From: Candidatus Zhuqueibacterota bacterium
GTDB lineage: Bacteria; Zhuqueibacterota; Zhuqueibacteria; Thermofontimicrobiales; Thermofontimicrobiaceae
Direction of reading: 5' to 3'
Assembly: GCA_049322915.1 (NCBI GenBank)
Contig: JBMOPW010000035.1
Location: 128,001 to 192,000 of the forward strand
DNA: 64,000 bases
The position numbers and the translations under genes are program-made. The notes under the pieces were generated by a model. The model had not been told where the DNA came from and ran no database searches. It saw nothing but the letters and a program-made list of their open reading frames with translations. Below, one piece after another: positions 14,924-33,962 of the stretch (positions are counted from its first letter, which is position 1; each line of letters opens with the position of its first letter).

Positions 14924-17900
14924 ATGAACACTGCACGTCATCAACATCGATCGAAACGTATTGTTTGTCTGATTGTTTTGCTGCTCCTCACACAGCCGTT
15001 GACGGGGGCGAATGCCGCTAAAGAACAGTCGGACAAACTGCTGCTGATTGAGTATTACCGTCTTCTGGAACTCATGCAGGACACTCCTCCGCCGCAGAAG
15101 ATCGTTCTGCTCCATGAGTTTATGGAATCACGGGCGGATTTCGAGGATATTTACATGTATCTTTTCGATCAATACTTGCTCAGCAATTTGCTAGACGATG
15201 CAGCGGATTATTTCCAGTCGCTTCTCTCGCATGGTAAAAGCGAATCCAACTGTCTCTGGATGCTGGCGAAAATTTATGCCAGTCAGGACCAACACCATCT
15301 GGCCCGGGAAATGTATCTCAAGGGGTTGAATGCTGCCGCTCCCTCGCTGGCGCTGGCCGAAGATGCAGTCGATTATTTTTGCAGCCAGGGTCAAAGCCAG
15401 CAATTGAAGCATGTACAGGCAGGCCGGGTTTATAAGACATGCATTCTCGCATTGACCGAACTCGAGCAAGCGCGCTACCAGAAAGCGCTGTCACTTTTCA
15501 TTGACTTGAATAAAACCGGACTGCATCCGATTTTCTGTCAGTATTATTGCGGTTACTGCAATTTCAAATTAGCGCGCTATGATGACGCAGCAGCCTGCTG
15601 GCAGAATAGCCTCGACGCTTCCCGATTACAGGGCGCGTTGCGCCAGGAAGCGCTCATTCTGGTCGGGCTGGGAGCGCTCTCCTACACCCGGGGTCGCTAT
15701 TCCCACGCGTCGCATTTTCTCGAACTGGCTGAGAAAATCATCTCGCGCATCGACGATTTTCGCATCGAGGAATATGCCACCGGCCATCATGCGGAGTTCG
15801 AGCTCAGCCAGGGGAATCACGAGCGAGCGATTTCCCGATTCGAACGGGCGGCGCAACTTTCGCTATCGCTGCATGAATTCGACCATGCTGCAGCCTGGTA
15901 TCTCGGCAAAGGCCGCGCGCTGTTCAGTGCGGACAGCCTGAATGCCGTTCTCCCCTGTCTCGAAACGAGCGAACACTATGCCCGACTGAAACAGAATCCG
16001 GCAATGCTGTTGGAATTGCGAATGGAGCGCGGACGTTTCTACCATCATCTCAACCTGACCGAACTGGCAAGACATGAATTTGTCGCCGCAGTGCAGGCAG
16101 CCAGGGAATTGGACTGGCCGTGCAAACTCGAAATCGCCCTCGACCGCTATGCTGAAATGCTCATCAGGGAAAAGCGATTTCTTGAAGCGCGTCGCATCTA
16201 TGGCAACTTTGTCAACGCGATAGTTCCCGGCTCAGAACCGGGGCGATTGTCGCATATTCACTGGAAGATCGGCGAGACCTACCGGTTGCAGGATTCTCTC
16301 AGGACGGCCCGGGCACACTATAGCCAGGCGCTCGAATTCGCGCTGCGCCAGCAGGATCACAATGAGGCGGCGTTGGCCAACTTGCGTCTGGGCGATGTCC
16401 AGCTTGGGCTCCGTCATTTTGACGATGCCATTCAATTCTATAACGAAGCGCTGCTGGCCGATTTTACCACTGAGAACTGGGAATTGCAGATTGAATTGAA
16501 TATGGGCATGGGCCATGCCTATCGCGGAAAAAAGGAATTGGATCGGGCGATCATGTTCTATAACCGCGCGGCGAATGTCATCGAGGAAAACAGGGGGAAG
16601 TTGATGGCCGCCCAATTTCGGTTGGGGTACTTCAGCCGGGGCGCCAGTGTCTACGACGCGCTGATTCAGGCCTATTTCGAACGGTACCGGCAACGTCAGG
16701 ACAACACAGTGCAGGAGCGGCTTTTCCATTGCATGGAAATGAGCCGCGCGCGCGTCCTTCGGGATTTAAAAAACAATGGCGCCGCGAGGCCGGGCGCCAA
16801 TTCCGATTATCGGCGCGCGTGCGAAGAGCTGGAACGAATTCAACGCTATCTGCGGCTTCATCCCGAATCAGAGGACTCGCTGAAAACCGAACTCGAAGCG
16901 GCGCGGTACAATTCCATCAACCGCCGGCTGATGCTGATGAACAAGGCGAATGCCGAAACTCCGGCGAATGCGCTGACCCTGAATGACCTCCGCGCCGGGC
17001 TGGAGCACACGGATTTCGGATTGCTTTTCTATCACATCTCCGAATATCAGTCTTTTGTCCTGATTGTGAATCAGGACCAGGTCGTCATCCTTCCGATGGA
17101 GGTCGATGGGTCACATCTGGCGAGTCAGGTCGATTCGTTGATTTCGCCCTTCACCAACGTGACAGTCGAATCGCTGCCGGAGACCCGTTTTCGCGCGGAT
17201 ATTGCCCATCGGCTGTACACCTTGCTGATTCAACCTGCCGAAAAAAAAGTAGCGCTGAAAAACAATTTGATCATCATCCCGGATTTTCCATTGACCAGCC
17301 TGCCTTTCGAATTGCTCCTGACCAAGCTGCCTCGCTGCGCTGCCTATGCTCCAGGCGATAGCGGCGACTATGCCGATTCGTTTTTACTCCATCGCTACTC
17401 GTTCATTTACAGCCCTTCCACCTGGCTCATTGAGGACAAAGCCGGGCCAGCGCCATCGGTCCCCGGCATCTTGATTCTGGCAAATCCGACGAACGACCAT
17501 CTTCCCCATTACGATCTGTCCTCTGCAGCAAGGCCTTCGCGCTGGGCCACCGATCTGCTGCTGTTCGCGGACGAGGAAGCGCAGAATATCAAGCGGAGCG
17601 GGAAACGGGTGAAAATATTTCATCGGAACACAGCGACGCGGGATAGTCTTTTTGCCCATGCCCGGAGCTATCCGATCATCCATTTCGCCACCCATGCGTT
17701 TGTGGACAGCGTGTTCGATGCCTTTTCCGGGCTGGTATTGGCGCCGGGCGTGGACGCCGCGGATGACGGTTTGCTCATGGGCTACGAAATTGCCGATGCC
17801 CATTTGCCCTGCGAGCTGATCACGCTGAGCGCCTGCGAAACTGCCAGGGGTAACATGCTGCCTGGCGAAGGTATTCTGGGGCTCCCCCGACTATTCTTCA

Positions 17901-18256
17901 GTTCCGGAGCGCGCAACGTACTCATGACCCATTGGAACGTCGACGATAAATTCACATCCAAACTGATGCCCCGATTTTACGACTATCTACTGGAAGAGAA
18001 TCTCTCCAAATCCGAGGCTCTAAAACAGGCGCAACTTTCGCTGATTCGAGCGACGAATGAAGGGAGCCAGTTAATTTACCATCACCCTGTGTACTGGGCG
18101 TCTTTTGTGTTGTACGGCATGCCGGACATCAGCACCGATTACTTCGTGAAAAATGGGAATCTCCGTCCAACGTTGATTGTTGTTTTCGCGCTTGCCCTCC
18201 TCCTCGGTCTGCTCATTCGTTTTTCTCATAGACGTTCTTCGAAAAGCATTGCATGA
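14924..18256 (+). CDS. TPR + CHAT (caspase-like clan CD peptidase) protein with signal peptide and C-terminal membrane anchor
   Basis: Signal peptide ending ANA-A; TPR-like repeats; ExSRAR, LIIIPD..L..LPFELL, IIHFATHA (His), LITLSACET (Cys), HWNVDD, HPVYWASFVLYG; C-terminal TM followed by RRSSK. Confidence 0.9.
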   Translation: MNTARHQHRSKRIVCLIVLLLLTQPLTGANAAKEQSDKLLLIEYYRLLELMQDTPPPQKIVLLHEFMESRADFEDIYMYLFDQYLLSNLLDDAADYFQSLLSHGKSESNCLWMLAKIYASQDQHHLAREMYLKGLNAAAPSLALAEDAVDYFCSQGQSQQLKHVQAGRVYKTCILALTELEQARYQKALSLFIDLNKTGLHPIFCQYYCGYCNFKLARYDDAAACWQNSLDASRLQGALRQEALILVGLGALSYTRGRYSHASHFLELAEKIISRIDDFRIEEYATGHHAEFELSQGNHERAISRFERAAQLSLSLHEFDHAAAWYLGKGRALFSADSLNAVLPCLETSEHYARLKQNPAMLLELRMERGRFYHHLNLTELARHEFVAAVQAARELDWPCKLEIALDRYAEMLIREKRFLEARRIYGNFVNAIVPGSEPGRLSHIHWKIGETYRLQDSLRTARAHYSQALEFALRQQDHNEAALANLRLGDVQLGLRHFDDAIQFYNEALLADFTTENWELQIELNMGMGHAYRGKKELDRAIMFYNRAANVIEENRGKLMAAQFRLGYFSRGASVYDALIQAYFERYRQRQDNTVQERLFHCMEMSRARVLRDLKNNGAARPGANSDYRRACEELERIQRYLRLHPESEDSLKTELEAARYNSINRRLMLMNKANAETPANALTLNDLRAGLEHTDFGLLFYHISEYQSFVLIVNQDQVVILPMEVDGSHLASQVDSLISPFTNVTVESLPETRFRADIAHRLYTLLIQPAEKKVALKNNLIIIPDFPLTSLPFELLLTKLPRCAAYAPGDSGDYADSFLLHRYSFIYSPSTWLIEDKAGPAPSVPGILILANPTNDHLPHYDLSSAARPSRWATDLLLFADEEAQNIKRSGKRVKIFHRNTATRDSLFAHARSYPIIHFATHAFVDSVFDAFSGLVLAPGVDAADDGLLMGYEIADAHLPCELITLSACETARGNMLPGEGILGLPRLFFSSGARNVLMTHWNVDDKFTSKLMPRFYDYLLEENLSKSEALKQAQLSLIRATNEGSQLIYHHPVYWASFVLYGMPDISTDYFVKNGNLRPTLIVVFALALLLGLLIRFSHRRSSKSIA

Positions 18257-18330
18257 TAAATAGATTTTAAGTGTATCGATCCTGCCTTCGATCATCATGC
18301 ACTGCGGTGAACATTTAATTAAAAATTACC

Positions 18331-18359
18331 TTGACTTTCTAAGTTTTGTTATTTATCTT
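18331..18359 (+). promoter_or_regulatory. Sigma70-like promoter upstream of the propeller gene
   Basis: TTGACT-17 nt-TATCTT. Confidence 0.5.
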
Positions 18360-18505
18360 TTTCGTAAGAATTGATATTTAAATCATCGATTCTAAAACTA
18401 ACCATTGAACATCACTTCCTTGATCCTTTCACCTGTCTATTTTTCATGACAATCCATTTTTCAGAAATAAAGTAATTATTGAGACTCATCAACAGTCCAA
18501 TTTCA

Positions 18506-21500
18506 ATGAAGATAAGAAGTCAAATATTTTTGCCTGCGGTGCTTTTGACTTTTATTTTTCAGATTCCCATCACAGCCCAGGTCGTTGTCACAACGTTCAG
18601 TGCTCCTGAAGCCATCCCCACAAATGTTGTTTTTTCCATATTCGAAGATGAAGCGCACATTCTCTGGGTCGGTACGAGTGGCGGATTAGGCCAGTATCAC
18701 GAAAATAACTGGGCTCAGTTGACAGAAAGTAATTCTCCGCTCATCAATAACCATGTGAAAGCGATTATACAGGATCATAACGGATACCTTTGGTTTGGAA
18801 CTGACCATGGCCTCAGTCAATATTACCAGGGAGCGTGGCAGAATTTCACCTATGCCGAGATGTCCGCTGACCCAAAATTCGACCAGATCACCTCGCTTTA
18901 TCTGGATTCCCGGAGTAAGCTTTGGATCGGCAGCAAGGAGGGCGGCGTTGTGAAACGATCCGGCAGCGGTTCATGGACCTATTACAGTCCGGCAGATGCC
19001 GGGTTCGGCGACGATATGATTACAGCGATATGCGAGGACAATAACAATCGTATCTGGTTTGGCACCGGGCATTCAGGAATCGTTGTTTTTGATCGCGAAT
19101 CTGAATGGTCCCGTCTTCAGGCACAGCCAGAAATAGGCGATGAGATACATCTGATCTATAAAGATAACCTGGATACATTATGGGTGAACACGGAAATCGG
19201 GCTGGCCCGGACATTCGATGGCATCGCCTGGAATTCGACCGGACTGGAAATGGTTCACGATGCCAGCGCTATTGCCGAAGACCAGGAGGGCAATATCTGG
19301 CTGGCCACTGAAAATGGCGAGCTGTTCCTTTATAATCGATACGAATGTAAAAAATCTGATGTACAATTCGACCAGGCCATTTGGTCGCTTCACCTGGATC
19401 ATGCGGGCTACCTTTGGGCGGCAACCAACGGCGGCGGCGTGAGTCGTTTGCATATCAACTGGCGGACGTTTCTTCAGGATTATATTATTTCGGACATCGA
19501 CGAGGATACCAGCGGTACATTATGGATTGGCACCGCTCGAAATGGAATAGCCAAATACGACGGGTCTGAATTTCAGATGATACAGGTGAAGAGCGATCTG
19601 ATACGAAAGGATTTTGTCAATTCCATTTTAGCCGATCATGAGAATCGGATCTGGTGCGGAACGAGGAGCGGTGTTTTCAGCTATGACCAGGATACATCGT
19701 GGCATGCTTATGGGGAGCCTGAGTTGCCCAATGTCATTGTAAACACAATTTTTCAGGACACACATAATCATCTATGGTTTGGCACATTGGGCGGCGCCAG
19801 CCGATTTGATGGCACTGACTGGCAAACATTTGATCGTGAACAGGGCCTGCCGGATACCAACGTGAAGGCAATCTGGGAGGACCATAAGGGGCACATCTGG
19901 TTTGGCACAGCCAATGGCGGCGCCTGCGAATTGAAACTGGATTCAGTGATCGCCATCTATAACATTGGAAATCAACTTTCCAGCAATAATGTTTCCGCGA
20001 TCCTTCAGGATAAAACGAACAACTACTGGTTTGGCACAAAAGATGGCTTACATCGATCGGACAGTTCGAAGGTTACATGGAGTCATTTTACAAAAGAGAG
20101 TAGCGGATTAGTCGACAACGACATAAAGACCCTGTTCGTTGATGATTACAACAACGTATGGGTTGGAACCTCTGCAGGCGGACTCTGCAAATTTGATGGA
20201 CAGTTCTGGTGGGATTTTAACAAATATTTGAGTGCTGATGAAGTGAACGCTGTTTTTCAGGATGCATCAAAAAATTACTGGTTTGGCACACCCATTGGAC
20301 TGGTTAAATATAGCGCGGATAAACTTGCCCCGAATACCTACATAACCATTGCTCCATCCTGCACGATCGGCGTGGCCTCGGCGATGTTTGCGTTCATTGG
20401 TGATGACAATGAAACTCCAAAAGAAAAGCTGGTTTTTAGCTGGGATTTGCAGTTGAAAAGTGAATTTGATGTGCACAACTGGTCTGATTACAGCGACCGG
20501 AATTATTGTTATATTGGTCCGCTTGGGAACGGCAACTATACTTTTTCTGTGAAAGCCCGCGATTCTGCCGGCAACGAGGATCATAAACCGGCGCAGTTCG
20601 ATTCCTTTACTGTGGATATAACGCCGCCTCAAACAATGTTGACTTACCCGGCGAACAATCAGAAAATTTCCGGGAAGGTGCCTGTTATCGGCGCTGTTTT
20701 CGACAATTCGCCCATCCGGGATTTTAAAATGTACCAATTGGATTACGCCAGAATCGATTCAGCCCGGGAGATTCAGGCGTTGGAATGGGTGAAAATTTAT
20801 CAGGATACAATCCCTTCCGATACCAATAAGACGCTATTCGAATGGGATACAGCAGATGTCGGGTATGGTCGTTATTCTCTCCGGCTATCTGCAGCAGATT
20901 ACCTGGAGCACAGGAGTGAATATCGGGTGGACGTGACGATTGTGGAATGTTTAACCGAGGTATCCAACAATTCCGGGTCGTCAATGATTGGTTCCTCGAA
21001 GCGGATTCAGCTTTATATTCCGCCCGGGGCGCTTCCGAAGGACATGATGGTTCATTTTTCACCGGTTGATACTTCGGACAAAAATAAAATCCCTGTTCCT
21101 CCGAACGATCACGTGAAATATTCTTCACTGGCCTATGAACTTGGGCCCAAAGACCTGAGTCTTTCTAAACCAGCCATCCTCGGTTTTCAGTACAATGATT
21201 CGGAAATTTCGTCTCTGCATGAAAAAAAGCTGTCGATCATGTTTGCCGATTCTACCGGTGAATATGAAATCCTGGGAGGATCCGTGGATTCAGATCAAAA
21301 TACAATCAGCACAGCGATAAAGAAAATGGGAGTCTATATTCTAATTGAAGATAATACATCAGCCCGTGCAAAGTCCAATATTTCAGACGTGAACTGTCAG
21401 CCGCGCATTTTTTCACCCAGGGGTAGCGGCTTTGCTGAAACTACGACTATTTTGTTCAAACTCTCCGCGCCTTCAAAAGTAAATGTGAAAGTCTATAACC

Positions 21501-21688
21501 TGGCTGGGCGGTTGGTCAAACAGCTACTGGAAAATGAATTATTGAATGCCAATTATAATACTGTCGAGTGGGACGGCCGCGATTACAATGGCGACATCTG
21601 TCCCAGCGATTTGTATATCATTACGATAGAAAGCGGAACTGGATTAAAAACAAAAACAGTGATGGTTCTGGATAAAGAAATTAAATGA
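18506..21688 (+). CDS. Exported Reg_prop beta-propeller protein with Ig-like, ZU5-like and C-terminal FlgD-Ig domains; no kinase domain
   Basis: Signal peptide; many I.xD..G.LW.GT..GL repeats; GNYTFSVKARDSAGN; IPPGAL...YELGP; FSP.G...VYNLAGRLVK...WDGRD..G tail. Confidence 0.8.
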   Translation: MKIRSQIFLPAVLLTFIFQIPITAQVVVTTFSAPEAIPTNVVFSIFEDEAHILWVGTSGGLGQYHENNWAQLTESNSPLINNHVKAIIQDHNGYLWFGTDHGLSQYYQGAWQNFTYAEMSADPKFDQITSLYLDSRSKLWIGSKEGGVVKRSGSGSWTYYSPADAGFGDDMITAICEDNNNRIWFGTGHSGIVVFDRESEWSRLQAQPEIGDEIHLIYKDNLDTLWVNTEIGLARTFDGIAWNSTGLEMVHDASAIAEDQEGNIWLATENGELFLYNRYECKKSDVQFDQAIWSLHLDHAGYLWAATNGGGVSRLHINWRTFLQDYIISDIDEDTSGTLWIGTARNGIAKYDGSEFQMIQVKSDLIRKDFVNSILADHENRIWCGTRSGVFSYDQDTSWHAYGEPELPNVIVNTIFQDTHNHLWFGTLGGASRFDGTDWQTFDREQGLPDTNVKAIWEDHKGHIWFGTANGGACELKLDSVIAIYNIGNQLSSNNVSAILQDKTNNYWFGTKDGLHRSDSSKVTWSHFTKESSGLVDNDIKTLFVDDYNNVWVGTSAGGLCKFDGQFWWDFNKYLSADEVNAVFQDASKNYWFGTPIGLVKYSADKLAPNTYITIAPSCTIGVASAMFAFIGDDNETPKEKLVFSWDLQLKSEFDVHNWSDYSDRNYCYIGPLGNGNYTFSVKARDSAGNEDHKPAQFDSFTVDITPPQTMLTYPANNQKISGKVPVIGAVFDNSPIRDFKMYQLDYARIDSAREIQALEWVKIYQDTIPSDTNKTLFEWDTADVGYGRYSLRLSAADYLEHRSEYRVDVTIVECLTEVSNNSGSSMIGSSKRIQLYIPPGALPKDMMVHFSPVDTSDKNKIPVPPNDHVKYSSLAYELGPKDLSLSKPAILGFQYNDSEISSLHEKKLSIMFADSTGEYEILGGSVDSDQNTISTAIKKMGVYILIEDNTSARAKSNISDVNCQPRIFSPRGSGFAETTTILFKLSAPSKVNVKVYNLAGRLVKQLLENELLNANYNTVEWDGRDYNGDICPSDLYIITIESGTGLKTKTVMVLDKEIK

Positions 21689-21880
21689 AACGACGGCCAT
21701 AGAAAAACTTTTTATTCATTAATCTTTACTGTTTAGCCGCATGATCGCGACGGGTAATTATCCGGCGAGGGGAATGGATTGAAACGGATGTTCCCGAATT
21801 AATGCATCGTTCGGAATGAATATCTCAATCGATCTGTAAATTTCATAAAAATAACCGTCATTTAAAAAGGAGGCTTATCG

Positions 21881-23887: not shown

Positions 23888-23889
23888 AA

Positions 23890-24259
23890 TAATTAGAATC
23901 TGTCCGAAAATTGCAAATATTGACCTCACCCCAATCCTCTCCTAAAAGGAGAGGGAGAACAGATGTTCCCCTTCTCCTTCCAGGCGCAGGGTAAGAAGGG
24001 GTTTAGGGGATGAGGTCGGTTGTAATGAAGTTTGAAAATATCACCACAATAGCTAATTTAGGTGTTTTCGGACAGACACTAATTAGCGTCTGTCCGAAAA
24101 CTGATGATTTCAAAGTTTTGTCATTCTGAGCGACCGAAGGGAGCGAAGAATCTGTGACCGCCAAACGCCAAATTTATTTAGACTTAGTGGTCATAGATGT
24201 TTCGTCGCTTCGCTCCTCAACATGACAGTATTAGTTACTTTTCGGACAGACACTAATTA
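23890..24259. mobile_element. Two tandem MITE-like elements with shared ~15-bp terminal inverted repeats, separated and flanked by TAATTA
   Basis: TIRs GAATCTGTCCGAAAA (23896-23910)/TTTTCGGACAGACAC (24065-24079) and GCGTCTGTCCGAAAA (24086-24100)/TTTTCGGACAGACAC (24239-24253); TAATTA at 23890, 24080 and 24254. Confidence 0.75.
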
Positions 24260-24430
24260 GTACTTACCTGAATAAAAATCCTGTTATGCGAATAGCCGGA
24301 GGTCACCCGAAGTTTAAAATTAAAATACCGGTGCCATTGCTCAGAACAATTGCATCGGAGAAAGACGATGCTACACGTTAACGCGCAACGCGTAAAATTC
24401 ATATCCCCTGGAATAAGGAAGGTTTGAAAA

Positions 24431-26977
24431 ATGAGAAATCTTTTTAAATTCCTTACCATTGTTTTAATCGCCGGCTCCGCCAATTCATTGGTTGCCCAGG
24501 AAATGTTCACACGAATACGCAACCAGGAGGTTGTCGGCGCTCGCCCCATGGCCCTCGGTGGGGCATTCGTCGCCCTGGCGGATGACATCAATGCAATTTA
24601 CTGGAATCCTGCCGGCCTGCCGGCCGTGAATCAATTGGGGCTAAATTTCATGTACGCCAATCTCTACGGGACCGGTATCGGAAATAATTATTTCTCCCTT
24701 TGCATTCCGGGGCCGCCCGGGTTAAGTTTTGGCCTCGATTGGATGAGCATCGGTTTCATGGATGAGGAGCTTGAATTCGAAAAAAATAAATTCAACTTTT
24801 CCGCCGGTTACCAGGTTTATGACTGGCTGGCAATTGGATTAAATGCCAGATACCTGCGCATGAACGCTTCCGCCTATCAACTCTCCCAGGGCTCGTTCCA
24901 CGGATGGGGATTCGATTGGGGGTTCATGGCTCGTCTTAACAAGAATTTGAAACTGGGACTGGTTATTCATGATCTCACCGATACAAAGTTGAATGGATTA
25001 GCAGCGCCGGTTTACAGGAGAAGCGTTCGATTCGGCGCAGCTTATAAATTGTTGGATAACCTGGCCTTCCTTTCCGATCTGGATGACCGTTTCCACCTGG
25101 GAACCGAATGGTGGCCCATTTCTGAATTATTGGCGCTAAGAGCCGGAGTCGAGCAGGATTTATATACCAACGAAACAGCAACCATGTCGTTCGGCGTAGG
25201 ACTGGAACTGCCTATCTGGGGACAGTCCTTGCGGCTGGATTACGCCTATATGAATTCTCCAACCTTAATGAGCACGCATCGCACTTCGGTATCATTCCTG
25301 ATCGATCTTTTTCCCCAACTGGTAAAAATTGAAAAGGTGGAAATCGAACCCATTTATGCGTCCCTGTATAAACATCATGCCCATAACCCTGTTGGGACAG
25401 CGTATGTGCGTTATAAGGGCAAGAAAGACCTGAAATGCAAGATCAATTTTTCAGGAAACCGGTACATGAAGGAACACACCAAAAATATCATCCTTCATCC
25501 CAAACCCGGCTCTGAGAATGTGCAGGAAATTTCACTGTACACCGTGTTCGAAGATTCAGTTTTATATGAAACTGACAGCATCCCTTTAAACGCGGACGTG
25601 AAAATTTCCTATGTCAATCGATATCGCCCCTGCAAAGACAGCCTCAGTCAGGAATTCAAGCTTTACAAAAGGAACCTGGTCAACTGGGAGCTTGGGGTTG
25701 ATCAAGCCGCGGCGTTCGTGACCCATGAAGACCCGGTCATCGAGCAATTTGCCCTGGCCGCTCTTTCCGATGGCGCTGTTTCGAAACAACCGTTCATTAT
25801 AAATGAGCAGACGACAAAAGCGCTGTTTTTGTTTAACGCGGTGTCCGGCCATGGCATTCAATACGATGAAGACGCCCAGCCTGTGGAAGGCAACGCCCGG
25901 CTCGGGTTAGACGATATCTGTTACCCGGTGCAGACGCTCAAGGACAGGCGCGGCGATTGTGATGATCTTTCGGTCCTGTTAGCTTCCTTATTTGAAAATC
26001 GAAATATCCCCGTTGCCTTCGTCGATTTTGGGGAGCACATTTCCGTCATTTTCAGCACAGGGGAACACCAGGGTTTGGCATCCAACCTGCCCTATCCCGA
26101 TGATTTATTTTTTCAATATCAAAATGAACTCTGGATTCCCCTGGAAGTGACCTGGATCGATTCGACTTTTTTTCGGGCATGGCAAAAAGGCGCTGCCGAA
26201 ATCACAAAAATCTTTGGGGAGGAGCAATATCGTGTGATTGAAATTCGTAAAGCATGGAATGAATACCAGCCGGTGAACTATGTCAGTCGATTTTTCAGGC
26301 CCATGCCCCTGGCTCAATCCCATTATATTGCATTAAAACAGGATGAGCCAATTCAGCTTAAAACAAATCATCTTTTTAATCTGGAACAGAAGATCACGCT
26401 TCATCCGGACAGCCTGGAATTGCGCAATCAATTAGCCATCAAATATGCCTTTGATAACCAGCGGGATAAAGCCAGAACTCATTTTCAACACATACTTGCC
26501 AGGGATTCGAATAATTTTTCAGCGATAAACAATCTCGGCAATTTATTTATTCTCGAAGGAAGAATAGACTCAGCCGAGACATTTTACCTGAAAGCTCAAC
26601 AATACGCACAAAATTCGGATCAGGTTGATGGCGTGAAATTGAACCTGGGATTGGTATACCTGGCAATCGGCCAGGATAGCCTTGCCATTGATGCGTTCTC
26701 CGAAGTGATGGAACATGAAGAGAACTTACAGAGAATTGCCGACCTGCTGAAGATCAATTTCAATCAGGAAGACTATTCCAAAGGCGATGACGCAAAGCCG
26801 AAAAAACCGGTTTCTAAAAATAGTGTTAAACAGATTTCTGCAAAGGCTAAAACTGAACTCAATGATAAATCTTCCAAGCCGAAAGAGCAGACAAAGCAAA
26901 CGCGGCGTCAGGCCGTGCGAAAAGGAAGTTACCTGGCTCCTGAAAAAATCGACAATGTCTTTTATTGGGCGGAATGA
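24431..26977 (+). CDS. PorV/PorQ(FadL-like) beta-barrel fused to a transglutaminase-like domain and TPR repeats
   Basis: Signal peptide; GARPMALGGAFVALADDINAIYWNPAGL; LRLDYAY...THRTSVSF barrel end; RGDCDDLSVLLASL, GEHISV, WIPLEVT; NNLGNL and LNLGLVY TPRs; Lys-rich tail. Confidence 0.8.
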   Translation: MRNLFKFLTIVLIAGSANSLVAQEMFTRIRNQEVVGARPMALGGAFVALADDINAIYWNPAGLPAVNQLGLNFMYANLYGTGIGNNYFSLCIPGPPGLSFGLDWMSIGFMDEELEFEKNKFNFSAGYQVYDWLAIGLNARYLRMNASAYQLSQGSFHGWGFDWGFMARLNKNLKLGLVIHDLTDTKLNGLAAPVYRRSVRFGAAYKLLDNLAFLSDLDDRFHLGTEWWPISELLALRAGVEQDLYTNETATMSFGVGLELPIWGQSLRLDYAYMNSPTLMSTHRTSVSFLIDLFPQLVKIEKVEIEPIYASLYKHHAHNPVGTAYVRYKGKKDLKCKINFSGNRYMKEHTKNIILHPKPGSENVQEISLYTVFEDSVLYETDSIPLNADVKISYVNRYRPCKDSLSQEFKLYKRNLVNWELGVDQAAAFVTHEDPVIEQFALAALSDGAVSKQPFIINEQTTKALFLFNAVSGHGIQYDEDAQPVEGNARLGLDDICYPVQTLKDRRGDCDDLSVLLASLFENRNIPVAFVDFGEHISVIFSTGEHQGLASNLPYPDDLFFQYQNELWIPLEVTWIDSTFFRAWQKGAAEITKIFGEEQYRVIEIRKAWNEYQPVNYVSRFFRPMPLAQSHYIALKQDEPIQLKTNHLFNLEQKITLHPDSLELRNQLAIKYAFDNQRDKARTHFQHILARDSNNFSAINNLGNLFILEGRIDSAETFYLKAQQYAQNSDQVDGVKLNLGLVYLAIGQDSLAIDAFSEVMEHEENLQRIADLLKINFNQEDYSKGDDAKPKKPVSKNSVKQISAKAKTELNDKSSKPKEQTKQTRRQAVRKGSYLAPEKIDNVFYWAE

Positions 26978-27003
26978 ATTTAGCAGAGTAGAACGGACCC
27001 GGT

Positions 27004-29943
27004 ATGAATGTTTCCCAGTTTACATCGAAGCACATCATCATTGCTGCCTGTATTTGCATGTGCATCGCAGCTTGTCTTGGTTTGCTTTTTGAAAATGTAA
27101 CTTATTTTTATGGCCTCGATGCTGATCTGCTGGACTACCTGATTTTCAAAAATAACAGCCGCAAGCCGTCGGACAAATTATCCCTCATTGTGATTGATGA
27201 TGAAAGCGTCCGTGAATTCGATGACGATAAATCTGCACTCCGCGATCAATATACTTATCTGATACAAAAATTATCGTCGTTCGGAGCTCGTTCCATCGCC
27301 TTTGACCTTTTTTTTGGTGATGGTTCAGAACCGTCAACGGACGCCCGCCTTGCCTTTGTGACAGATTCGACGCGAAAAGTGATTCACAGTTTTTATTTTC
27401 CGGAAAACGGGCCAGGCGGCGAGTATGATTCACTAATAGAATATCAAAAATACGCCATCGAAATCCGGAATGAAAATTACCTGGATATCATCGAGGTGGA
27501 TTATGCCACTTTTCCCAACGCAAATTTTATTGACGCCTTTGATTATGCCGGTTTTGTTTCGTATGAATGCGATAAGGACGGGGCAACCCGGCGCATGCCC
27601 CTGATTTACAAATTTAACGGATTGATTTACCCCTCGTTAACCCTGGCGGCCATGTTCCATTACAATGATATGCAGGTGAAATCCATTCGTATCGAGCGCG
27701 GGACCTGGGGTTTTCAAATGATTATTGATGTGCCGAACAGCCCTGTTCGCATACCAGTGGATAACAAGGGCCAGGCAATGCTGAATTACTATGGGACGTT
27801 CCAGCTCTTCTCCCATCACCCACTTCATAAAACGATTAAACTATTGCAATCAATTCAATGGAACAATGGTTTGGATACGTCGATGCTTCCTTTTCATGAT
27901 CACATTGTTCTGTTTGGAAACACCGAACTCAATGAAGGCGACAGCCATAATACACCCTTTTCGGTTGATTTCCCCGGAGTTGGTCTCCACGCAACGCTGA
28001 TCAGCAATATCCTGAATCATGACTTCCTGGTTGAAGCTCCCTGGTACATCAATTTTCTTGTCACACTGATTTTGCTCATTTTTCTATTTTGTTCCTTCAG
28101 CTATTATTTGAAACATTCAAAATCACAGCTATTCTTTTCTTTCCTCTCGCTCGCCCCGCTGCTGGTGCTAAATTCAGCTTACTATTTTTTTATATTCAAC
28201 AACACAGGAATCTGGCTGAAATTATTTCAGGTGAATTCGATTTTTATGGTTCTGTTTTTCTTCCTGTTATTTTTCGAAAAAATAATTCATCTCAAAAAAT
28301 TGAACCGGGAGATTTCAGATCTGGAAGAAAAACTCCGGAATAAATCCATCGATCTGGACAAAGTCAATGAGCAAGTGCGATTTCAATCGGAGCAATTAAA
28401 GATTGTCACCTATTTTGCCAATGAATTGCGCAATACCTATTCGAGTACCTCGCCGGATGGAACAGAAGTGAAGGATGAATTTATCGGTCACCTGCTGGAA
28501 AATGAAAACATTTTGAAACAGCAGATCGATGCGGAATTGCAGCGGTATAAAATTGAAAAACAGATCCTCGATGCGGAGCTTTTGCAATTGAGAGCGGAGC
28601 GTCAGGCGTTTTTGAACAGGAATATCGAGGTCGAAAAAGTTGGAAAGCAGCCGCCGAGCAACCCGGATAAAACCATACGCTTTCAAAATATCCTGTCATA
28701 TTTGGATTATTTTTATTCCCAGTTGAGATCAGGTCGCCTTAATCAACAGGTCACTATGGGCATCATAGCCGTTCCTTTCTTGAAGACCGAAACCTGTGAA
28801 TTGATGAAAACAGAAATGGGCGAATTATTTGATGAAATAAAAACGATCAGTGCTTTTAAAACGACTGCTCTGATCAATGGCGAGTCCGGCACAGGGAAAG
28901 AACTCATCGCCGATGCAATTCACGAGCAAAGTTCGTTAAAAAACAAGAGAATGGTAAAACTGGATTGCGGTGCAATTCCGGAAACACTCTTGGAGAGCGA
29001 ATTGTTCGGGCATACCAAGGGCGCTTACAGTGGCGCCCACACGGATCGCAAAGGCGCATTTCTTACAGCAGACGGCAGCACCATATTTTTGGACGAAATT
29101 GGCGAGTTGAAATTGGACTTGCAGGCGAAACTGCTTCGCGTAATTCAGGAAAAGACAATCAAAAAAGTAGGCGCTGATACGCCAATTCAGGTTGATGTAA
29201 GAATTATTGCAGCGACGAACCGGGATTTAGCAACAGCCGTGCAAAAAGGTGAGTTTCGCCAGGACTTGTATTATCGCCTCAATGTCGTGAATTTGAAAAT
29301 CCCGCCGCTGAGACAGAGAAGATGGGATGTTCCGTTCCTGATCCATTTCTTTTTATCTCAATATAGTGACAGGTATGGCGAAAAAAAATCCTTTACCGAC
29401 GAAGCGTATAACGCGGCCATGTGTTACGACTGGCCCGGGAATATCAGGGAACTGCAAAATCTAATTGAAAAACTCTACGTCACGTGCCCCAAACAGTTGA
29501 TTGACTTATCTGATTTGACGCCATCGATCCAGACTACCTATCGAGAAATAATGGCAACCGGTGACCAGGCGTGTTGGCATCATATTGGAGATATGGTTCA
29601 AAAAGAAAAAGACCGGTTGCTCGATCTCTGTAAATCTTCCTTAAGATCGAAAAAAGCAAAAACGACTTTTATGCCGTCGGGAATGAATCTGGATGAAGAG
29701 ACAAATTGTTATGACGCCCTGGCATGCTATGTCGATCAACTGGCCACGCTATTCCCACCAGTGAAAAAAGAAGCGCTGGTTCGTTCTGCCATTGTTCAGA
29801 TGCAGGAAGAATTATTTAAATGCTGCCATCAGGAAAAAATTGGGAAATTAAACGAATTGTACCCAGTCATTGAAAAAATTTTAGGCCGCAGTCGGCGCCA
29901 GATTGATAATTGGCGGGGTGATTTGAGTGAAAATTCTGATTAA
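27004..29943 (+). CDS. Membrane-bound sigma54-dependent activator (bEBP) with extracytoplasmic CHASE2 sensor
   Basis: CHASE2 motifs IVIDDES, GARSIAFDLFF, DGATRRMPL, HNTP..PGVGLHA..ISNIL; 3 TM; coiled coil; GESGTGKE, ESELFGH, GAYSGA, IFLDE, RIIAATNRDL, FRQDLYYRL, WPGNIREL; possible terminal HTH. Confidence 0.9.
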   Translation: MNVSQFTSKHIIIAACICMCIAACLGLLFENVTYFYGLDADLLDYLIFKNNSRKPSDKLSLIVIDDESVREFDDDKSALRDQYTYLIQKLSSFGARSIAFDLFFGDGSEPSTDARLAFVTDSTRKVIHSFYFPENGPGGEYDSLIEYQKYAIEIRNENYLDIIEVDYATFPNANFIDAFDYAGFVSYECDKDGATRRMPLIYKFNGLIYPSLTLAAMFHYNDMQVKSIRIERGTWGFQMIIDVPNSPVRIPVDNKGQAMLNYYGTFQLFSHHPLHKTIKLLQSIQWNNGLDTSMLPFHDHIVLFGNTELNEGDSHNTPFSVDFPGVGLHATLISNILNHDFLVEAPWYINFLVTLILLIFLFCSFSYYLKHSKSQLFFSFLSLAPLLVLNSAYYFFIFNNTGIWLKLFQVNSIFMVLFFFLLFFEKIIHLKKLNREISDLEEKLRNKSIDLDKVNEQVRFQSEQLKIVTYFANELRNTYSSTSPDGTEVKDEFIGHLLENENILKQQIDAELQRYKIEKQILDAELLQLRAERQAFLNRNIEVEKVGKQPPSNPDKTIRFQNILSYLDYFYSQLRSGRLNQQVTMGIIAVPFLKTETCELMKTEMGELFDEIKTISAFKTTALINGESGTGKELIADAIHEQSSLKNKRMVKLDCGAIPETLLESELFGHTKGAYSGAHTDRKGAFLTADGSTIFLDEIGELKLDLQAKLLRVIQEKTIKKVGADTPIQVDVRIIAATNRDLATAVQKGEFRQDLYYRLNVVNLKIPPLRQRRWDVPFLIHFFLSQYSDRYGEKKSFTDEAYNAAMCYDWPGNIRELQNLIEKLYVTCPKQLIDLSDLTPSIQTTYREIMATGDQACWHHIGDMVQKEKDRLLDLCKSSLRSKKAKTTFMPSGMNLDEETNCYDALACYVDQLATLFPPVKKEALVRSAIVQMQEELFKCCHQEKIGKLNELYPVIEKILGRSRRQIDNWRGDLSENSD

Positions 29944-29948
29944 TCCAT

Positions 29949-30220
29949 TAAAATTTGGAAATGCTTCCCGGTGAAAATTTCCAAATTTTATTTACTCCAT
30001 ATAAAATCCGTCCCGTTTCCTTCCACCGTATTCCCTTTAATTTTATTGAATTAGTAACGTACCAATATAAAATTCTTTCCCATGAAATTTGGAAATCTCC
30101 TGTTTCCACGCAAATAAAATTCCGCACAACAAATTTTTCTCTTATCCAGTTAATTGCCAATTTATTAACAAATTACATCCTTCAAAAATTTGCAGAAAAG
30201 AAGTTGGCACAGCCTTTGAA
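29949..30220 (+). promoter_or_regulatory. Candidate bEBP enhancer sites and sigma54-like -24/-12 promoter
   Basis: Perfect 14-bp inverted repeat (29949-29962/29977-29990); repeated half-site AAATTTGGAAAT (30085-30096); TGGCAC-AGCCT-TTGAA (30205-30220) with GA in place of GC at -12. Confidence 0.5.
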
Positions 30221-30445
30221 TGAGCCTGATGCGAACATCGCTGATAAATGAAAAGACATCAGACAACAAAGTAGCTATCATTAACGATGATGTTCACGCT
30301 CTTTCGAAATTTATTTAACTCACCCGAATGTTGCAGACTAATTAGAATGGATCGAGTGTCGGGTCAGCCTATTCGCAAAATGGTTCGGCGCTTGTTCCGG
30401 CAACATTCAAAAAATTCTTCATCATTATTTTATTGGAGGTGTATC

Positions 30446-31150
30446 ATGGATACATTCGTTAACCCGATTCCAGGAATCAAACTGGAAAAAATGTTTGCTT
30501 TCGATTTTCCTCTGGGGTCTACTTCTAAGGATTATCAAACTCCCGGATGCAAGCGGAATGTGGATTTGAACAATCCGAATGGCCAGGGCGAAACCCCAAC
30601 ATCTGAGGTTCCAACTCAGGAAGGTATTTATGGCAAGTTGGGCAATCCCAAACGTCACCAGGGATTTCCCTCTGTTATGGAATGGCCCACTCCTGAAGCC
30701 GAAGATCCTGATATGCAAGACCAGATCGTGGATATCGACCGCGAAGCCTGCTTTGACCACACCGGTCGACTGAGCGGCTCGTTCGTGAAATACCTGGTTC
30801 AGGCAAATCATCATTCCAACGTCAAAATGACGGTTGTTCCGTTAACCCATGGAAATGGAAGCCCTGTATTAATTTGGGAGTCTGGTTTTGTGGCTCTTGT
30901 ACCGCAGGCGGCTGGTCCGAATAAGTGGTACTGGGAAGACATTGCCAAGCAGAATGAATTAATTTTCACTGCCCACGCTGTGATCAATCCGCAAAAATGG
31001 CAGTCCCTGAATTTGAAACCGGGCATCTACAAACTGGTTATCAACTGGGAATTTTGGGCAGCCACCGGAAAAGTCAGAGAGAGAATGCCTATTTCCGGAT
31101 TCGATGAATCAGTATCGTTCGAACTCTCTGCTCCGACAATCGATCTGTAA
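30446..31150 (+). CDS. Hypothetical 234-aa cytoplasmic protein, probable beta-rich C-terminal domain
   Basis: GGAGGT RBS 5 nt before ATG 30446; no signal peptide; followed by a terminator hairpin. Confidence 0.7.
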   Translation: MDTFVNPIPGIKLEKMFAFDFPLGSTSKDYQTPGCKRNVDLNNPNGQGETPTSEVPTQEGIYGKLGNPKRHQGFPSVMEWPTPEAEDPDMQDQIVDIDREACFDHTGRLSGSFVKYLVQANHHSNVKMTVVPLTHGNGSPVLIWESGFVALVPQAAGPNKWYWEDIAKQNELIFTAHAVINPQKWQSLNLKPGIYKLVINWEFWAATGKVRERMPISGFDESVSFELSAPTIDL

Positions 31151-31210
31151 AAAAGTGTTCCCATTCTCCCAATCCAGGGTTGATTGTGACGTTTAGTACC
31201 CAAACCAAAT

Positions 31211-31251
31211 ACGGCCATCCATTTCTCCCGATCCGGGCTATGGATGGCCGT
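31211..31251. terminator. Hairpin between convergent genes, probable bidirectional terminator
   Basis: ACGGCCATCCAT / ATGGATGGCCGT perfect 12-bp stem. Confidence 0.7.
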
Positions 31252-31294
31252 CTTAATTTCGAGTCTTCATCACATGAAATTGTGATAAAACAGG

Positions 31295-31519
31295 CTAATT
31301 CAAATTGGTGTAAATGTCCTGGTATTCGGCGGGCGCGTAACGTCCGGTATGATTAACATTCCTCTTTGCATTACGAATGATCACTTGACCGTTACGCCAG
31401 TTTTCCCGAAGTTCATAATTGCAGCGAGGGCAGGTGTAAATAATCCAATCACCATCCCGGGTGGAATCACACGTATGTCTTTCCGGAACAGATGAGGAGC
31501 CATTGTTAAATTCTGTCAT
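31295..31519 (-). CDS. 74-aa putative zinc-ribbon protein
   Basis: GAGGTGG RBS; HTC...CPRC...H candidate metal ligands; convergent terminator downstream. Confidence 0.6.
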   Translation of the reverse strand: MTEFNNGSSSVPERHTCDSTRDGDWIIYTCPRCNYELRENWRNGQVIIRNAKRNVNHTGRYAPAEYQDIYTNLN

Positions 31520-31741
31520 TTTCCACCTCTACTGGTTACTAGTACAGAGTTCTTCACCCAATTATAGCGCATTCCATCCGAGCGTCGAATGCTGAATGCG
31601 CTCTTAAAGACAAGTTAACTTCACATACGCATTTGGTCGTGTCGCTATGGTTCAAAAATTATATCCACGCTTGTTCAATATAATAGATATTTTTTTACTA
31701 AAAATCAAATACTATTTTTGTAATAATAAAGGAATTATATT

Positions 31742-33655
31742 ATGACAGAACATAATATCGCTCCGAAAAACTGGGCTCTGACCTATCGCGCTCTGAACAG
31801 GGCGTTGACTCACTATTCAAACGATCCTGATATTTCCCTCATCGATGTGGGATTTCGGATTCGCACTTCAAATGAAAATCAAATTCTGCCGGAGTTAGCA
31901 GTGAGATTTCATGTCAAAAAGAAGTTGACTGGCGGGGAATTCAGAAATCTGGTGATGCATTTTCCCCATCGGGAGATTGACGCGAACAGGATAGGTTTTG
32001 CCGTCGATGTGATTGAAGCAAACTATTCCTTAAATGCATCAATCCAGGAAACAGATGGTGCGTTGCAACAATTCCAGGAAAATCAAAATCTTCATGGCGG
32101 AATTCGCATCGCCAATTCACAAAATAATCATGCCGGCACATTGGGAGGATTTGTCAGGGATCGCTACTCTGGTACTAATATGATTCTCAGCACCTGGCAT
32201 GTGCTTGCCGGCTCATGGAATACGCAACAGGGAATCCCTGTTTGCCTACCGGCAGATTCAACAGAAAGACGCAATCAGCCTGAGTTTGTTGCTGAATATA
32301 CGAGAAGTGCGATCGCACATCACTTTGACGCCGCAGTGGCATGCTTGAAAAATCAATATAACTGTCATAACAACCAGTCAGGAATCGGGCCTGTGAACGG
32401 GGTGACCGCGCCCCGACTGGGGATGAAAGTAATGAAATCCGGCGCCGGCACAAACGTGACGTCAGGTATCATCACAGGAATATCAGGCTGCCTGGTTCAG
32501 AATTATTATGGGCGCCAGTACTCTATTCGTTCGGTAATTCATATTTTGCCCTTGCAACGAAATACTGAAATGTGCGCTTCCGGTGATTCCGGCGCCTGGT
32601 GGTTGGAACAGTCAACTTCGTACGCTGTGGGCTTGCATATTGCCGGAAATTCAGATGCATCTTCTTCGCTCGCAGTGAATATGCAGGATGTCTTAGATGT
32701 GTTGGAAGTTGATGTCATCACTGAACGCAGCGGGCCTTCATGGCTGCCAAAAGCTACAACTCTTTCAGATAAATCTAAAACTGAAAATAACTATCAATCC
32801 ATTCGTTCTACGCCAGAAGAAAATGAGGCATCGCCAATGAGTCCCGCGATTATAAAATATCAACATCCCGGACAGTTTGTCCCTGTTAATTTTCAATCAA
32901 TTCCTGAGCATACTGCAAAAAGAAACTATCGAAAAATTGTTTTCACAAAGATCGTATTATTATTACACCAAAATATCAGGAGTATAGTCAGGAGTTTTAT
33001 CTATCTATTTTTCTTGTTGATGAGCTACTTCACCGTTTCAAATTTTAATTCCAACAATGAACCAAAACCAGATCAGCTCCTGAATCAAATAAATCATTTG
33101 CATGAGGTGGCACAACAGATTTCAGCCATCCGGCAAATCGATGCACTGCGCGACAGAAGGATCAAAAAGATAGTTTCCATTATTGATAAATACAATGAAC
33201 GAATGGCGCCTGAACTGAAAGTCAGCATCGCCAGTGAGATTTTTGAGATGACCATCAGGTACGAGAATCTCGATATTGAATTGATCTGCGCGACAATTAC
33301 GCATGAAAGCGCCCTGACATGGAATCCTGAAATCGTTTCGCCGGTCGGGGCAATGGGATTGATGCAGATTTTACCCACGACCGGCAGTTACCTGGCTCGC
33401 CAGGAGGGAATTTTAGATTATCAGGCAAAAGAAATACTTTTCAATCCAAATTATAATATTCGTCTCGGCTGCCGCTATTTATCCAATTTAATTGAAGTTT
33501 ACAGCATCGATGGCGGTTTGGCCGCTTATAACGGAGGAATGAAACGAGCTGAAAAATGGGTGCGAAGCGGGCGTGCTGATGGTATTTTGCACGAAGAAAC
33601 GGCGCTCTATGTCCCGTCAATTTTAAAATTTTATGAAATGTTTAAATGTATGTGA
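31742..33655 (+). CDS. Trypsin-like (NAL1-like S1) serine protease fused through a TM helix to a lytic transglycosylase (SLT) domain
   Basis: GTLGGFV, STWHVL (His), DAAVA (Asp), VMKSGAGT.VTSG, SGDSGA (Ser); TM SFIYLFFLLMSYFTV; THES (Glu), GAMGLMQILP, NIRLGCRYL, LAAYNGG, ET..YV. Confidence 0.88.
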   Translation: MTEHNIAPKNWALTYRALNRALTHYSNDPDISLIDVGFRIRTSNENQILPELAVRFHVKKKLTGGEFRNLVMHFPHREIDANRIGFAVDVIEANYSLNASIQETDGALQQFQENQNLHGGIRIANSQNNHAGTLGGFVRDRYSGTNMILSTWHVLAGSWNTQQGIPVCLPADSTERRNQPEFVAEYTRSAIAHHFDAAVACLKNQYNCHNNQSGIGPVNGVTAPRLGMKVMKSGAGTNVTSGIITGISGCLVQNYYGRQYSIRSVIHILPLQRNTEMCASGDSGAWWLEQSTSYAVGLHIAGNSDASSSLAVNMQDVLDVLEVDVITERSGPSWLPKATTLSDKSKTENNYQSIRSTPEENEASPMSPAIIKYQHPGQFVPVNFQSIPEHTAKRNYRKIVFTKIVLLLHQNIRSIVRSFIYLFFLLMSYFTVSNFNSNNEPKPDQLLNQINHLHEVAQQISAIRQIDALRDRRIKKIVSIIDKYNERMAPELKVSIASEIFEMTIRYENLDIELICATITHESALTWNPEIVSPVGAMGLMQILPTTGSYLARQEGILDYQAKEILFNPNYNIRLGCRYLSNLIEVYSIDGGLAAYNGGMKRAEKWVRSGRADGILHEETALYVPSILKFYEMFKCM

Positions 33656-33933: not shown

Positions 33934-33962
33934 TTGACTTTTCTGGAATATTTACATATATT
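33934..33962 (+). promoter_or_regulatory. Sigma70-like promoter of the alpha-2-macroglobulin gene
   Basis: TTGACT-17 nt-TATATT; the TTG used as the ORF-track start is this -35 box. Confidence 0.6.

Follow-up and report, generated by a model that had tools for sequence, protein, structure and literature searches.

A gene triad of surface sorting-domain protein, PorV-type barrel-enzyme fusion and CHASE2 receptor as a candidate trans-envelope signalling module

In Sinorhizobium meliloti, CHASE2 cyclases perceive a plant protein via the outer-membrane barrel NsrA (PMC13001267), and in Porphyromonas gingivalis the PorQ-PorZ pair belongs to the T9SS (type IX secretion system) attachment complex (PMC10947112). 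Judged by analogy, the NsrA pathway appears to be the closest functional precedent, and PorQ-PorZ the closest structural precedent, for a block of six genes (g2-g7) in the DNA of a Candidatus Zhuqueibacterota bacterium (assembly GCA_049322915.1). The DNA analysed, called the window here, is a stretch of 64,000 nucleotides (nt) that comprises positions 128001-192000 of contig C35 within a 6.25 Mb assembly of 45 contigs (labelled G000); unless another locus is named, coordinates are those of the window. It is reasonably likely that this block represents an accessory copy of a trans-envelope signalling module that is widespread and so far undescribed. No published account of this module, or of its combination of proteins, was found in the open literature (subscription journals and supplements were outside the scope of the search), in keeping with an original prediction, made from the sequence of the window, that knew of no described system with this combination.

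The likeness to the NsrA-CyaD1/CyaD2/CyaK pathway lies in the pairing of a CHASE2 receptor with an outer-membrane beta-barrel and in an external protein signal, and cyclase outputs are found in the module too. As far as the available part of its description extends, however, that pathway has cyclase outputs only, and neither T9SS cargo nor a fusion of barrel, enzyme and TPR is reported for it. The PorV-PorU and PorQ-PorZ proteins of P. gingivalis share with the module a 14-strand barrel of the PorV family, a propeller protein that bears a T9SS C-terminal domain, and an enzyme of the cysteine type; the enzyme of the module, however, is transglutaminase-like rather than C25 and is fused at the periplasmic end of the barrel, and the pair of barrel and propeller protein is coupled to CHASE2, a receptor that the T9SS as described does not include. 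CHASE2 itself is described in general terms, in the available parts of two reports, as a domain that senses on the extracellular side or serves as a receptor for small molecules (PMC8195603, PMC2853523), and fusions of CHASE2 with caspase and with CHAT domains have already been published (PMC2853523, PMC8195603). The CHASE2-CHAT output of these published proteins, which come from cyanobacteria and conflict systems, also occurs in 7/28 metagenome loci and in four relatives' loci of the module. In the accessible portions of those reports it is linked neither with T9SS cargo nor with a barrel of the PorV-transglutaminase kind, and in the window the CHAT domain is in a separate protein. Within the literature examined, as far as the sources extend, the plant protein sensed via NsrA is the only signal seen tied to CHASE2 receptors.

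Hybrid two-component systems of Bacteroides have periplasmic sensors with Reg_prop propellers and Y_Y_Y/Ig domains. Reg_prop repeats likewise lie in the N-terminal 700 aa of g2, and a Y_Y_Y domain is present in its homologue in genome G024; the Bacteroides sensor, however, is the periplasmic part of a kinase, whereas g2 is encoded separately, as a secreted protein that bears a T9SS sorting domain. The LapD-LapG-LapA system consists of an inner-membrane receptor, a periplasmic transglutaminase-like protease and an outer-membrane-tethered adhesin, and thus resembles the module in that it combines a Cys-His enzyme of the periplasm with a receptor in the inner membrane and with a large surface protein at an outer-membrane channel. 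It differs in using a type I secretion system, a soluble protease and a cyclic di-GMP-binding receptor that lacks CHASE2, and g4 has no family match to LapG.

In the window, g2 (18479..21688, with a likely start at ATG 18506), g4 (24431..26977) and g5 (27004..29943) encode a surface sensor protein, an outer-membrane barrel-enzyme-TPR fusion and a one-component transmembrane sigma-54 activator, respectively; these and g1, g3, g6 and g7 are all on the + strand. The list of open reading frames (ORFs) confirmed the positions first assigned to the seven + strand genes, and Pfam and NCBIfam profile searches of the window proteins recovered the domains that had been read in them (CHAT, propeller, PorV-transglutaminase, CHASE2-sigma54 and protease-SLT), the transglutaminase through weak matches of relatives together with its residues. 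Among 40 related genomes searched with g4, full-length relatives (barrel plus middle domain) are present in eight, and nine relatives' loci were fetched along with one paralogous locus of G000 itself. A g2-type gene adjoins g4 in 9/9 of the relatives' loci and a CHASE2 gene in 8/9. The genes g2-g3-g4-g5 are syntenic in G013:C64, G018:C65 and G015:C246, with g6 in addition in G015; in six more distant loci, a g2-type gene lies beside g4 in all and a CHASE2 gene in five, the other (G024:C41) having a WD40-caspase protein instead.

Contigs from one genome per species supplied 80 loci among the matches listed. The g4 middle domain is present in 14 of these, and the other 66, which hold plain PorV-family genes and total 844 kb, formed a control set. 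CHASE2 lies downstream in 11/14 of the loci with the transglutaminase domain, two of the remaining three being cut by a contig end; the 14 are labelled KSB1, Eisenbacteria, Zixibacteria, Latescibacterota, Gemmatimonadetes (Gemmatimonadota), unclassified and, in one case, Saccharimonadales. A scan of metagenomes with g4 alone returned zero relatives, but an alignment of the g4 domain as the query succeeded, and 79 loci were taken from the more than 412 relatives that it found. These loci contain 75 non-redundant occurrences of the domain: 48 are fused to a PorV-like barrel, 13 are without a barrel and 14 are cut. Among barrel fusions with at least 3.5 kb of downstream sequence, a CHASE2 gene on the same strand within 5 kb is found in 27/29 informative cases, as against 0/66 in the plain PorV control. 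Among loci with at least 1.5 kb of upstream sequence, the full module of ZU5-like and sorting domains, scored at a strict threshold, lies upstream of the barrel fusion in 24/33 (median gap 132 nt) and anywhere in the locus in 27/33; the control has it in 1/66, that one being a truncated fusion locus. When the domain occurs without a PorV-type barrel, CHASE2 is present in 1/6 informative cases. By this gene order, g2, g4 and g5 are a triad kept in fixed order across at least five phylum labels. The original prediction had named chance accumulation, with homologues that never co-occur, as the outcome that would count against it; the neighbourhood comparison argues against chance, g2, g4 and g5 co-occurring across phyla.

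The protein encoded by g2 has a signal peptide-like N-terminus, as read from the sequence, followed by about 600 aa of Reg_prop propeller repeats (193.7 bits), Ig domains, a ZU5-like domain (PF00791, 32.9 bits, cut-off 21) and a sorting domain of T9SS type A (TIGR04183, residues 988-1063, 26.9 bits, cut-off 23). A model of the C-terminal 390 aa (mean predicted local distance difference test score, pLDDT, 89.7) contains a ZU5-like sandwich and then the sorting domain; it matches the ankyrin ZU5 structure 3f59_A with a TM-score of 0.68 and a root-mean-square deviation of 3.5, and PorU and PorZ chains were matched too. The ZU5 domains of PIDD/FIIND have an autoproteolytic motif (His, Phe, Ser); in the ZU5 domain of g2, no invariant His, Phe or Ser was found across 18 aligned sequences. 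The N-terminal part of g2-type proteins varies, being made of Reg_prop propellers, of FG-GAP propellers or of CBM9 and Ig domains, and the C-terminal module of Ig, ZU5-like and sorting domains is constant, with the last ~240-390 residues alignable. The genome has a T9SS of its own (SprA at 893.6 bits, with its neighbours, and two PorU proteins whose 868.7 and 818.5 bits exceed the cut-off of 420). By analogy, g2 would be exported by the T9SS and docked through its sorting domain on the barrel of g4, as PorZ is on PorQ. (It should be noted that in loci L177 and L195 two or three tandem ZU5-sorting-domain genes precede a single barrel-enzyme gene, which suggests that several alternative sensors may share one relay.) The genome as a whole has about 45 ORFs that match the PorU C-terminal sorting domain and about 40 paralogues of the sigma-54 activator, numbers which indicate that sigma-54 and the T9SS are both heavily used.

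The model of g4 (pLDDT 86.8), which has a signal peptide, starts with a 14-strand PorV/FadL-like barrel at about residues 30-295 and continues with an Ig-like sandwich (298-418) and an alpha/beta domain that corresponds to the transglutaminase-like Cys-His domain (about 421-612). TPR follows at 639-773, then a tail rich in Lys, and YWA(E/F) is conserved at the C-terminus; several loci have the TPR segment as a small gene of its own. Across 46 relatives, G508-D-C510-D-D512 and H536 do not vary, and E572 is conserved in at least 90%. The His and Cys of the CHAT domain and the His-Asp-Ser of g7 are likewise conserved in alignments, and the three active sites that had looked intact hold up as sequence motifs. 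Among the 46 relatives, Pfam PorV is matched by 7, Transglut_core by 20 (best E 2.6e-4) and DUF553 by 16, and a paralogue of g4 in the same genome reaches 23.1 bits with the transglutaminase profile, whose cut-off is 23. On this weak but recurrent evidence, the middle domain of g4 is probably transglutaminase-like. Because it is a C-terminal extension of a 14-strand barrel, the arm of g4 is expected from barrel topology to be periplasmic. The domain is abundant (1270 representatives at E <=1e-30 in a library clustered at 50% identity), and the public names of g4 relatives lead to candidate division KSB1 and Latescibacteria. A second architecture places the same domain at about residues 850-1400 of proteins of 1200-1780 aa (P0082, P0088, P0092 and others). 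A complex prediction for the g4 arm (296-848) and the CHASE2 part of g5 (29-346) gave scores of 0.21 and 0.00, to be read against a mark of 0.32, and speaks neither for nor against binding.

The third member of the triad, g5, reads as an N-terminal transmembrane (TM) helix, a periplasmic CHASE2 domain lying between hydrophobic segments (PF05226, 133.5 bits, cut-off 26.3), a TM bundle, a coiled coil, a sigma-54 AAA+ domain (Sigma54_activat, PF00158, 222.6 bits) and a C-terminus like a helix-turn-helix (HTH). A search of 5.8 billion proteins with g5 gave 14 matches, 12 of which have both CHASE2 and Sigma54_activat. The 28 complete CHASE2 neighbours in the metagenome loci, all confirmed by Pfam CHASE2, carry SpoIIE/PP2C (10), CHAT (7), sigma-54 AAA+ (4), Ser/Thr Pkinase (3), cyclase (2) or TIR (2) outputs, and the loci of named genomes add six SpoIIE and four cyclase forms. 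Such a varied output marks CHASE2 here as part of a signalling receptor, and a constant core whose input and output ends are swapped argues for a modular signalling system. At L046 (G018:C142, 2917-6681), a CHASE2-CHAT/C25-like receptor gene is followed by genes for an extracytoplasmic function (ECF) sigma factor and a zf-HC2 anti-sigma factor, an order which suggests that the CHAT output may cleave the anti-sigma factor. CHASE2-TIR fusions lie downstream of complete pairs of ZU5-sorting-domain and barrel-transglutaminase genes at L174 (5109-6899) and L195 (11316-12944). A further locus of G000 (L138, C26:52000-63500) has a cyclase-output CHASE2 protein between a FecR-domain protein, an 844-aa protein of no family and a 1269-aa PKD/cadherin T9SS cargo; here CHASE2 lies beside T9SS cargo without the barrel-enzyme fusion.

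Immediately beyond g5, starting 11 nt past its stop codon, lies a candidate enhancer, or upstream activating sequence (29954..29985), which is the palindrome TTTGGAAAT-N14-ATTTCCAAA; a third half-site is present at 30088-30096. At up to two mismatches the palindrome has this single occurrence in the 6.25 Mb genome. With the same spacing it is found in seven other loci, lying 3' of the g5 homologue in G013, G015, G018:C65, L142 and L147 and 5' of g2 or g4 in L143, L145 and L147. About 220 nt further on is TGGCACAGCCTTTGAA (30205..30220, + strand), a candidate -24/-12 promoter of the sigma-54 type with the form TGGCAC-N5-TTGA. Promoter matches at up to two mismatches number 31 in the window against 35.5 expected, so that such a match taken alone is not above chance; TGGCA(C/T)-N5-TTGA is also present downstream of the g5 homologues in G015, G018:C65, G013:C64, L142 and L147. 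The genome contains rpoN (Sigma54_DBD, 200.5 bits). From these sequences g5 would be a transmembrane sigma-54 activator with its own candidate enhancer and promoter directly downstream, here acting on g6. The transmembrane sigma-54 regulator and target promoter of the original prediction have thus gained a conserved and genomically unique palindrome beside the -24/-12 site.

The gene behind this promoter, g6 (30446..31150, in an ORF that is open from 30287), has its likely start at an ATG behind the ribosome-binding site GGAGG and encodes a protein of 234 aa whose fold is without assignment: Pfam, NCBIfam, PADLOC and Atlas gave no informative match (best Atlas feature score 0.82, structure TM-score <=0.43). 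Homologues occupy the same position in G015 (67% identical) and L147 (55%), and a blastp comparison found no g6-like protein behind the G018:C65 and G013:C64 promoters, the G015 protein alone being matched. Outside the window, g6 was seen in G015 and L147 only, so the regulon does not begin with a conserved gene. The protein encoded by g7 (31742..33655) has a trypsin-like N-terminus without a signal peptide; a TM segment lies at about 400-430, and the protein also contains a lytic transglycosylase domain of the SLT family (67 bits). Its His, Asp, GDSG Ser and SLT Glu are conserved in all five aligned proteins, which include a stand-alone trypsin without the SLT part, and its SLT half is 45-53% identical to stand-alone membrane-anchored SLT proteins of the same genomes. 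A trypsin-like/lytic-transglycosylase gene lies 3' of the CHASE2-sigma54 gene in the window, G018:C65, G015:C246 and G013:C64 (4/4 genome loci) and also in L147, and the link first proposed between a peptidoglycan-lytic gene and the regulator is thereby strengthened. G018 and G015 have the trypsin-SLT gene, and a truncated trypsin gene is found at the contig start of G013:C64; in G018:C65 and G013:C64 a trypsin-like gene follows close behind the promoter, as does the trypsin-SLT gene in G018:C65. Elsewhere in G000, locus L047 (C1, 3867-11376) contains a CHASE2-sigma54 gene (866 aa), the site TGGCATCCCCTTTGCA (of the form TGGCAT-N5-TTGC), a 222-aa outer-membrane protein barrel, then a 531-aa outer-membrane protein barrel with Ig and transglutaminase-like domains, as well as two genes of no family. 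L047 repeats the association of CHASE2 with a barrel-transglutaminase protein, with a different barrel.

This genomic context suggests a relay that probably runs from the surface protein through the outer-membrane barrel-enzyme to the inner-membrane CHASE2 receptor. Secreted by the T9SS and held by its sorting domain on the dedicated barrel of g4, g2 would be a surface-exposed sensor, and a change in it upon ligand binding or contact would be passed to the periplasmic Ig-transglutaminase-TPR arm of g4. The arm would then act on the CHASE2 domain of g5 or be read by it; because the Cys-His pair is invariant, this step may be a proteolytic or transamidating event. In the window, g5 would assemble on the enhancer at 29954-29985 and open the promoter at 30205, leading to the expression of g6. 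In the relatives, an operon for trypsin-like and trypsin-SLT proteins would be expressed, with remodelling of the cell wall or envelope as the consequence. The likeness of the propeller and Ig domains to the Bacteroides sensors, together with the CBM9-like domains, points by analogy to an extracellular glycan or polymer, or to the surface of another cell, as the signal. If the relay exists, T9SS components serve in signal transduction and not in secretion only, and a fixed partner consisting of a barrel-enzyme fusion and a secreted protein offers a testable idea of what one large subgroup of CHASE2 receptors reads; the partnership extends over several candidate phyla and six output types. A stronger version, in which the Cys-His arm of the PorV-type barrel cleaves or covalently modifies the CHASE2 ectodomain and thereby reads bait or sensor proteins displayed by the T9SS, would amount to a new class of surface signalling; it is tentative, and we would not bet on it. 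Were it true, CHASE2 would not sense small molecules but would be a module gated by a protease or a partner, and one and the same front end would feed gene regulation in some cases and suicide effectors (TIR, CHAT) in others.

Several observations weigh against the signalling module as drawn here. The contacts within it, and the direction of its signal, are predictions from gene context. The profiles for CHASE2, the barrel and the module were built from the analysts' own alignments, that is, from sequences of such loci, and the loci counted are mutually related, which means that the counts overstate independence even as they span several phylum labels. CHASE2 is absent in 2/29 cases, and the upstream module in 9/33 at the strict threshold. 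The match of g2 to PorZ (NF052228, 117.1 bits) is far below the cut-off of 260, and that of the g4 barrel to the PorV/PorQ family (NF033709, 78.3 bits) is under the cut-off of 90. No Pfam transglutaminase match to g4 itself was found at E <=0.01, the transglutaminase-like domain drew 0 matches at E <=1 in a profile search of PDB sequences, and fold searches (Foldseek, VIA) with the g4 model as a whole returned rows for its barrel, its Ig domain and TPR alone. In g5 there is no Pfam HTH_8, the HTH-like C-terminal segment having been read by eye, and the loop reads GAYSGA, a variant of GAFTGA; variants of this sort may be tolerated in bacterial enhancer-binding proteins. Finally, g6 and g7 are separated in the window by a 590-nt gap and a terminator-like 10-bp GC-rich hairpin with a T-rich tail (31211..31249, + strand, read from the sequence), so g7 may escape the sigma-54 promoter here. 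Control of g7 by g5 in the window is plausible.

The first gene of the locus as it was originally drawn, g1 (14924..18256), encodes a TPR-CHAT protein (Pfam CHAT 202.7 bits), and its CHAT His and Cys align with those of eight CHASE2-CHAT proteins. In the same-genus genome G001, an orthologue of g1 (54% identity) has the same ABC and TonB neighbours, and a2M-pbpC is on another contig. The two stretches fetched from G001, both of which reach contig ends, gave no matches to g2, g3, g6 or g7; full-length g4 was not found in G001, where PorV-like matches alone were seen. No other locus searched with g1 has it beside the module. The synteny with G001 therefore makes g2-g7 an accessory block between conserved flanks, with g1 part of a flank. 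Base composition had been noted by eye to become AT-richer from ~18.3 kb, and this is borne out by a G+C content of 0.442 for g2-g7 against 0.538 for g1, 0.541 for a2M and 0.557 for pbpC; the genome stands at 0.488. As 6.4% of 15-kb genome windows are equal to or below g2-g7, its G+C is lower but not extreme. The signal peptide and C-terminal membrane anchor of g1 predict a periplasmic protein, whereas the CHAT domains fused to CHASE2 receptors follow the membrane segments and are on the cytoplasmic side. The existence of CHASE2-CHAT fusions had made g1 a candidate for the protease of the module, a role rejected on synteny, G+C and predicted compartment. The claim of one locus from g1 to g7 thus stands for g2-g7 and is not supported for g1, on the G001 synteny, its absence elsewhere, its G+C and its compartment. 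This gene is probably an adjacent bystander belonging to the conserved flank, and the unit of the module is g2-g7 (18479-33655), six of the eight genes originally flagged.

A different reading, and an unlikely one, makes the locus an envelope surveillance or conflict system, with the propeller protein as bait for a phage, predator or competitor and with damaging outputs (TIR, CHAT/caspase-like, or trypsin-like plus peptidoglycan-lytic). The CHAT (7/28) and TIR (2/28) outputs are indeed effector-like, a WD40-caspase protein replaces CHASE2 in G024:C41, and caspase-CHASE2 fusions are treated among conflict systems in the available part of one report (PMC8195603). The sensor N-terminus is variable, occurrence is patchy (full-length g4 in 8/40 genomes and none found in G001), the G+C of g2-g7 is lower, and a type ISP restriction enzyme adjoins the G018:C65 locus. 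Yet 19/28 outputs are ordinary regulators (PP2C, sigma-54, kinase, cyclase), the one locus in which CHASE2-CHAT is followed by ECF sigma and anti-sigma genes fits regulatory proteolysis, and the Pfam and neighbourhood scan showed neither mobile-element nor phage genes around the window locus. For the window proteins, PADLOC returned a generic TPR model for g1 and an RtcR-type AAA+ model for g5, the other six proteins having no match, and thus no defence family beyond the generic. The conflict role put forward in the original prediction is not upheld by these generic matches and by the commonest outputs, which are regulatory; the CHAT and TIR outputs keep its threat-sensing reading open.

Control could also run from the inside out, as in LapD-LapG-LapA, with the CHASE2 protein governing a g4 protease that cleaves or releases g2 and with the cytoplasmic domains as inputs or feedback. 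A periplasmic Cys-His domain of the papain/transglutaminase fold at the outer-membrane anchor of a large surface protein would suit this arrangement, as would the constant C-terminal module of g2, and the palindrome 5' of g2 or g4 in L143, L145 and L147 suggests that the module is itself regulated. It is made improbable by cytoplasmic domains that are classical outputs and include no obvious cytoplasmic sensor domain, by the description of CHASE2 as an extracellular sensor domain in the parts of the reports available (PMC8195603, PMC2853523), and by the failure of g4 to match LapG-type families in Pfam and NCBIfam. Still less probable is a dedicated apparatus for T9SS attachment or biogenesis, an analogue of PorQ/PorZ/PorU with a sortase-like transpeptidase, in which CHASE2 monitors assembly stress. 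The PorV-family barrel and the double-propeller sorting-domain protein do mirror PorQ and PorZ, and the complex would include a cysteine enzyme, as PorU is in the available account of the P. gingivalis complex (PMC10947112). However, PorU acts at the surface, whereas barrel topology would put the g4 extension in the periplasm; two PorU genes above the cut-off are already present in the genome; and one would not expect a biogenesis factor to be coupled strictly to receptors of six output kinds. A chance accumulation of unrelated envelope genes is extremely unlikely: g1 and a small ORF on the minus strand do look like neighbours with no relation to the rest, and g6 occurs in just two other loci, but the conserved order and the contrast with the control loci contradict chance for g2, g4 and g5, and it holds only for g1.

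The signalling block also includes g3 (21881..23887), a membrane protein with a CBM9-like N-terminal domain and C-terminal TM helices for which no Pfam or NCBIfam family was found. CBM9_1 is matched by its homologue in G013 (E 2.9e-5), and residues 37-257 of g3 reach TM-scores of 0.70-0.73 to CBM9 clusters in the Atlas structure rows, which is a lead only. From its further occurrence in G013:C64, G018:C65, G015:C246, L143 and L147, g3 appears to be an accessory of loci of the sigma-54 type. The spacer between g3 and g4 contains four copies, inverted and direct, of the 22-nt repeat TTTTCGGACAGACACTAATTAG (23889..24260). This is probably a small dispersed element: the genome has 36 copies at up to three mismatches, often as inverted pairs 150-730 nt apart. 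Similar copies are found in the G013 and G015 loci. A role of these repeats as operators is ruled out by the 36 genome-wide copies, which are hence not specific to the module. The sole plausible minus-strand gene is a 74-aa ORF (31295..31519) with zinc-ribbon-like Cys pairs and its own ribosome-binding site; it has a weak VdcD-like match (E 5.8e-4) and no counterpart in the related loci examined, and its reality is uncertain.

The flanks of the locus are ordinary, with an ABC transporter and a TonB receptor upstream and a2M and pbpC downstream. At 33934-42683, the a2M gene (1876 aa), a 116-aa ORF and pbpC have the same order in the same-genus genome, with 73-82% identity. In G018:C65, the gene directly upstream of the module encodes a type ISP restriction-modification enzyme (L031, 553-3726).

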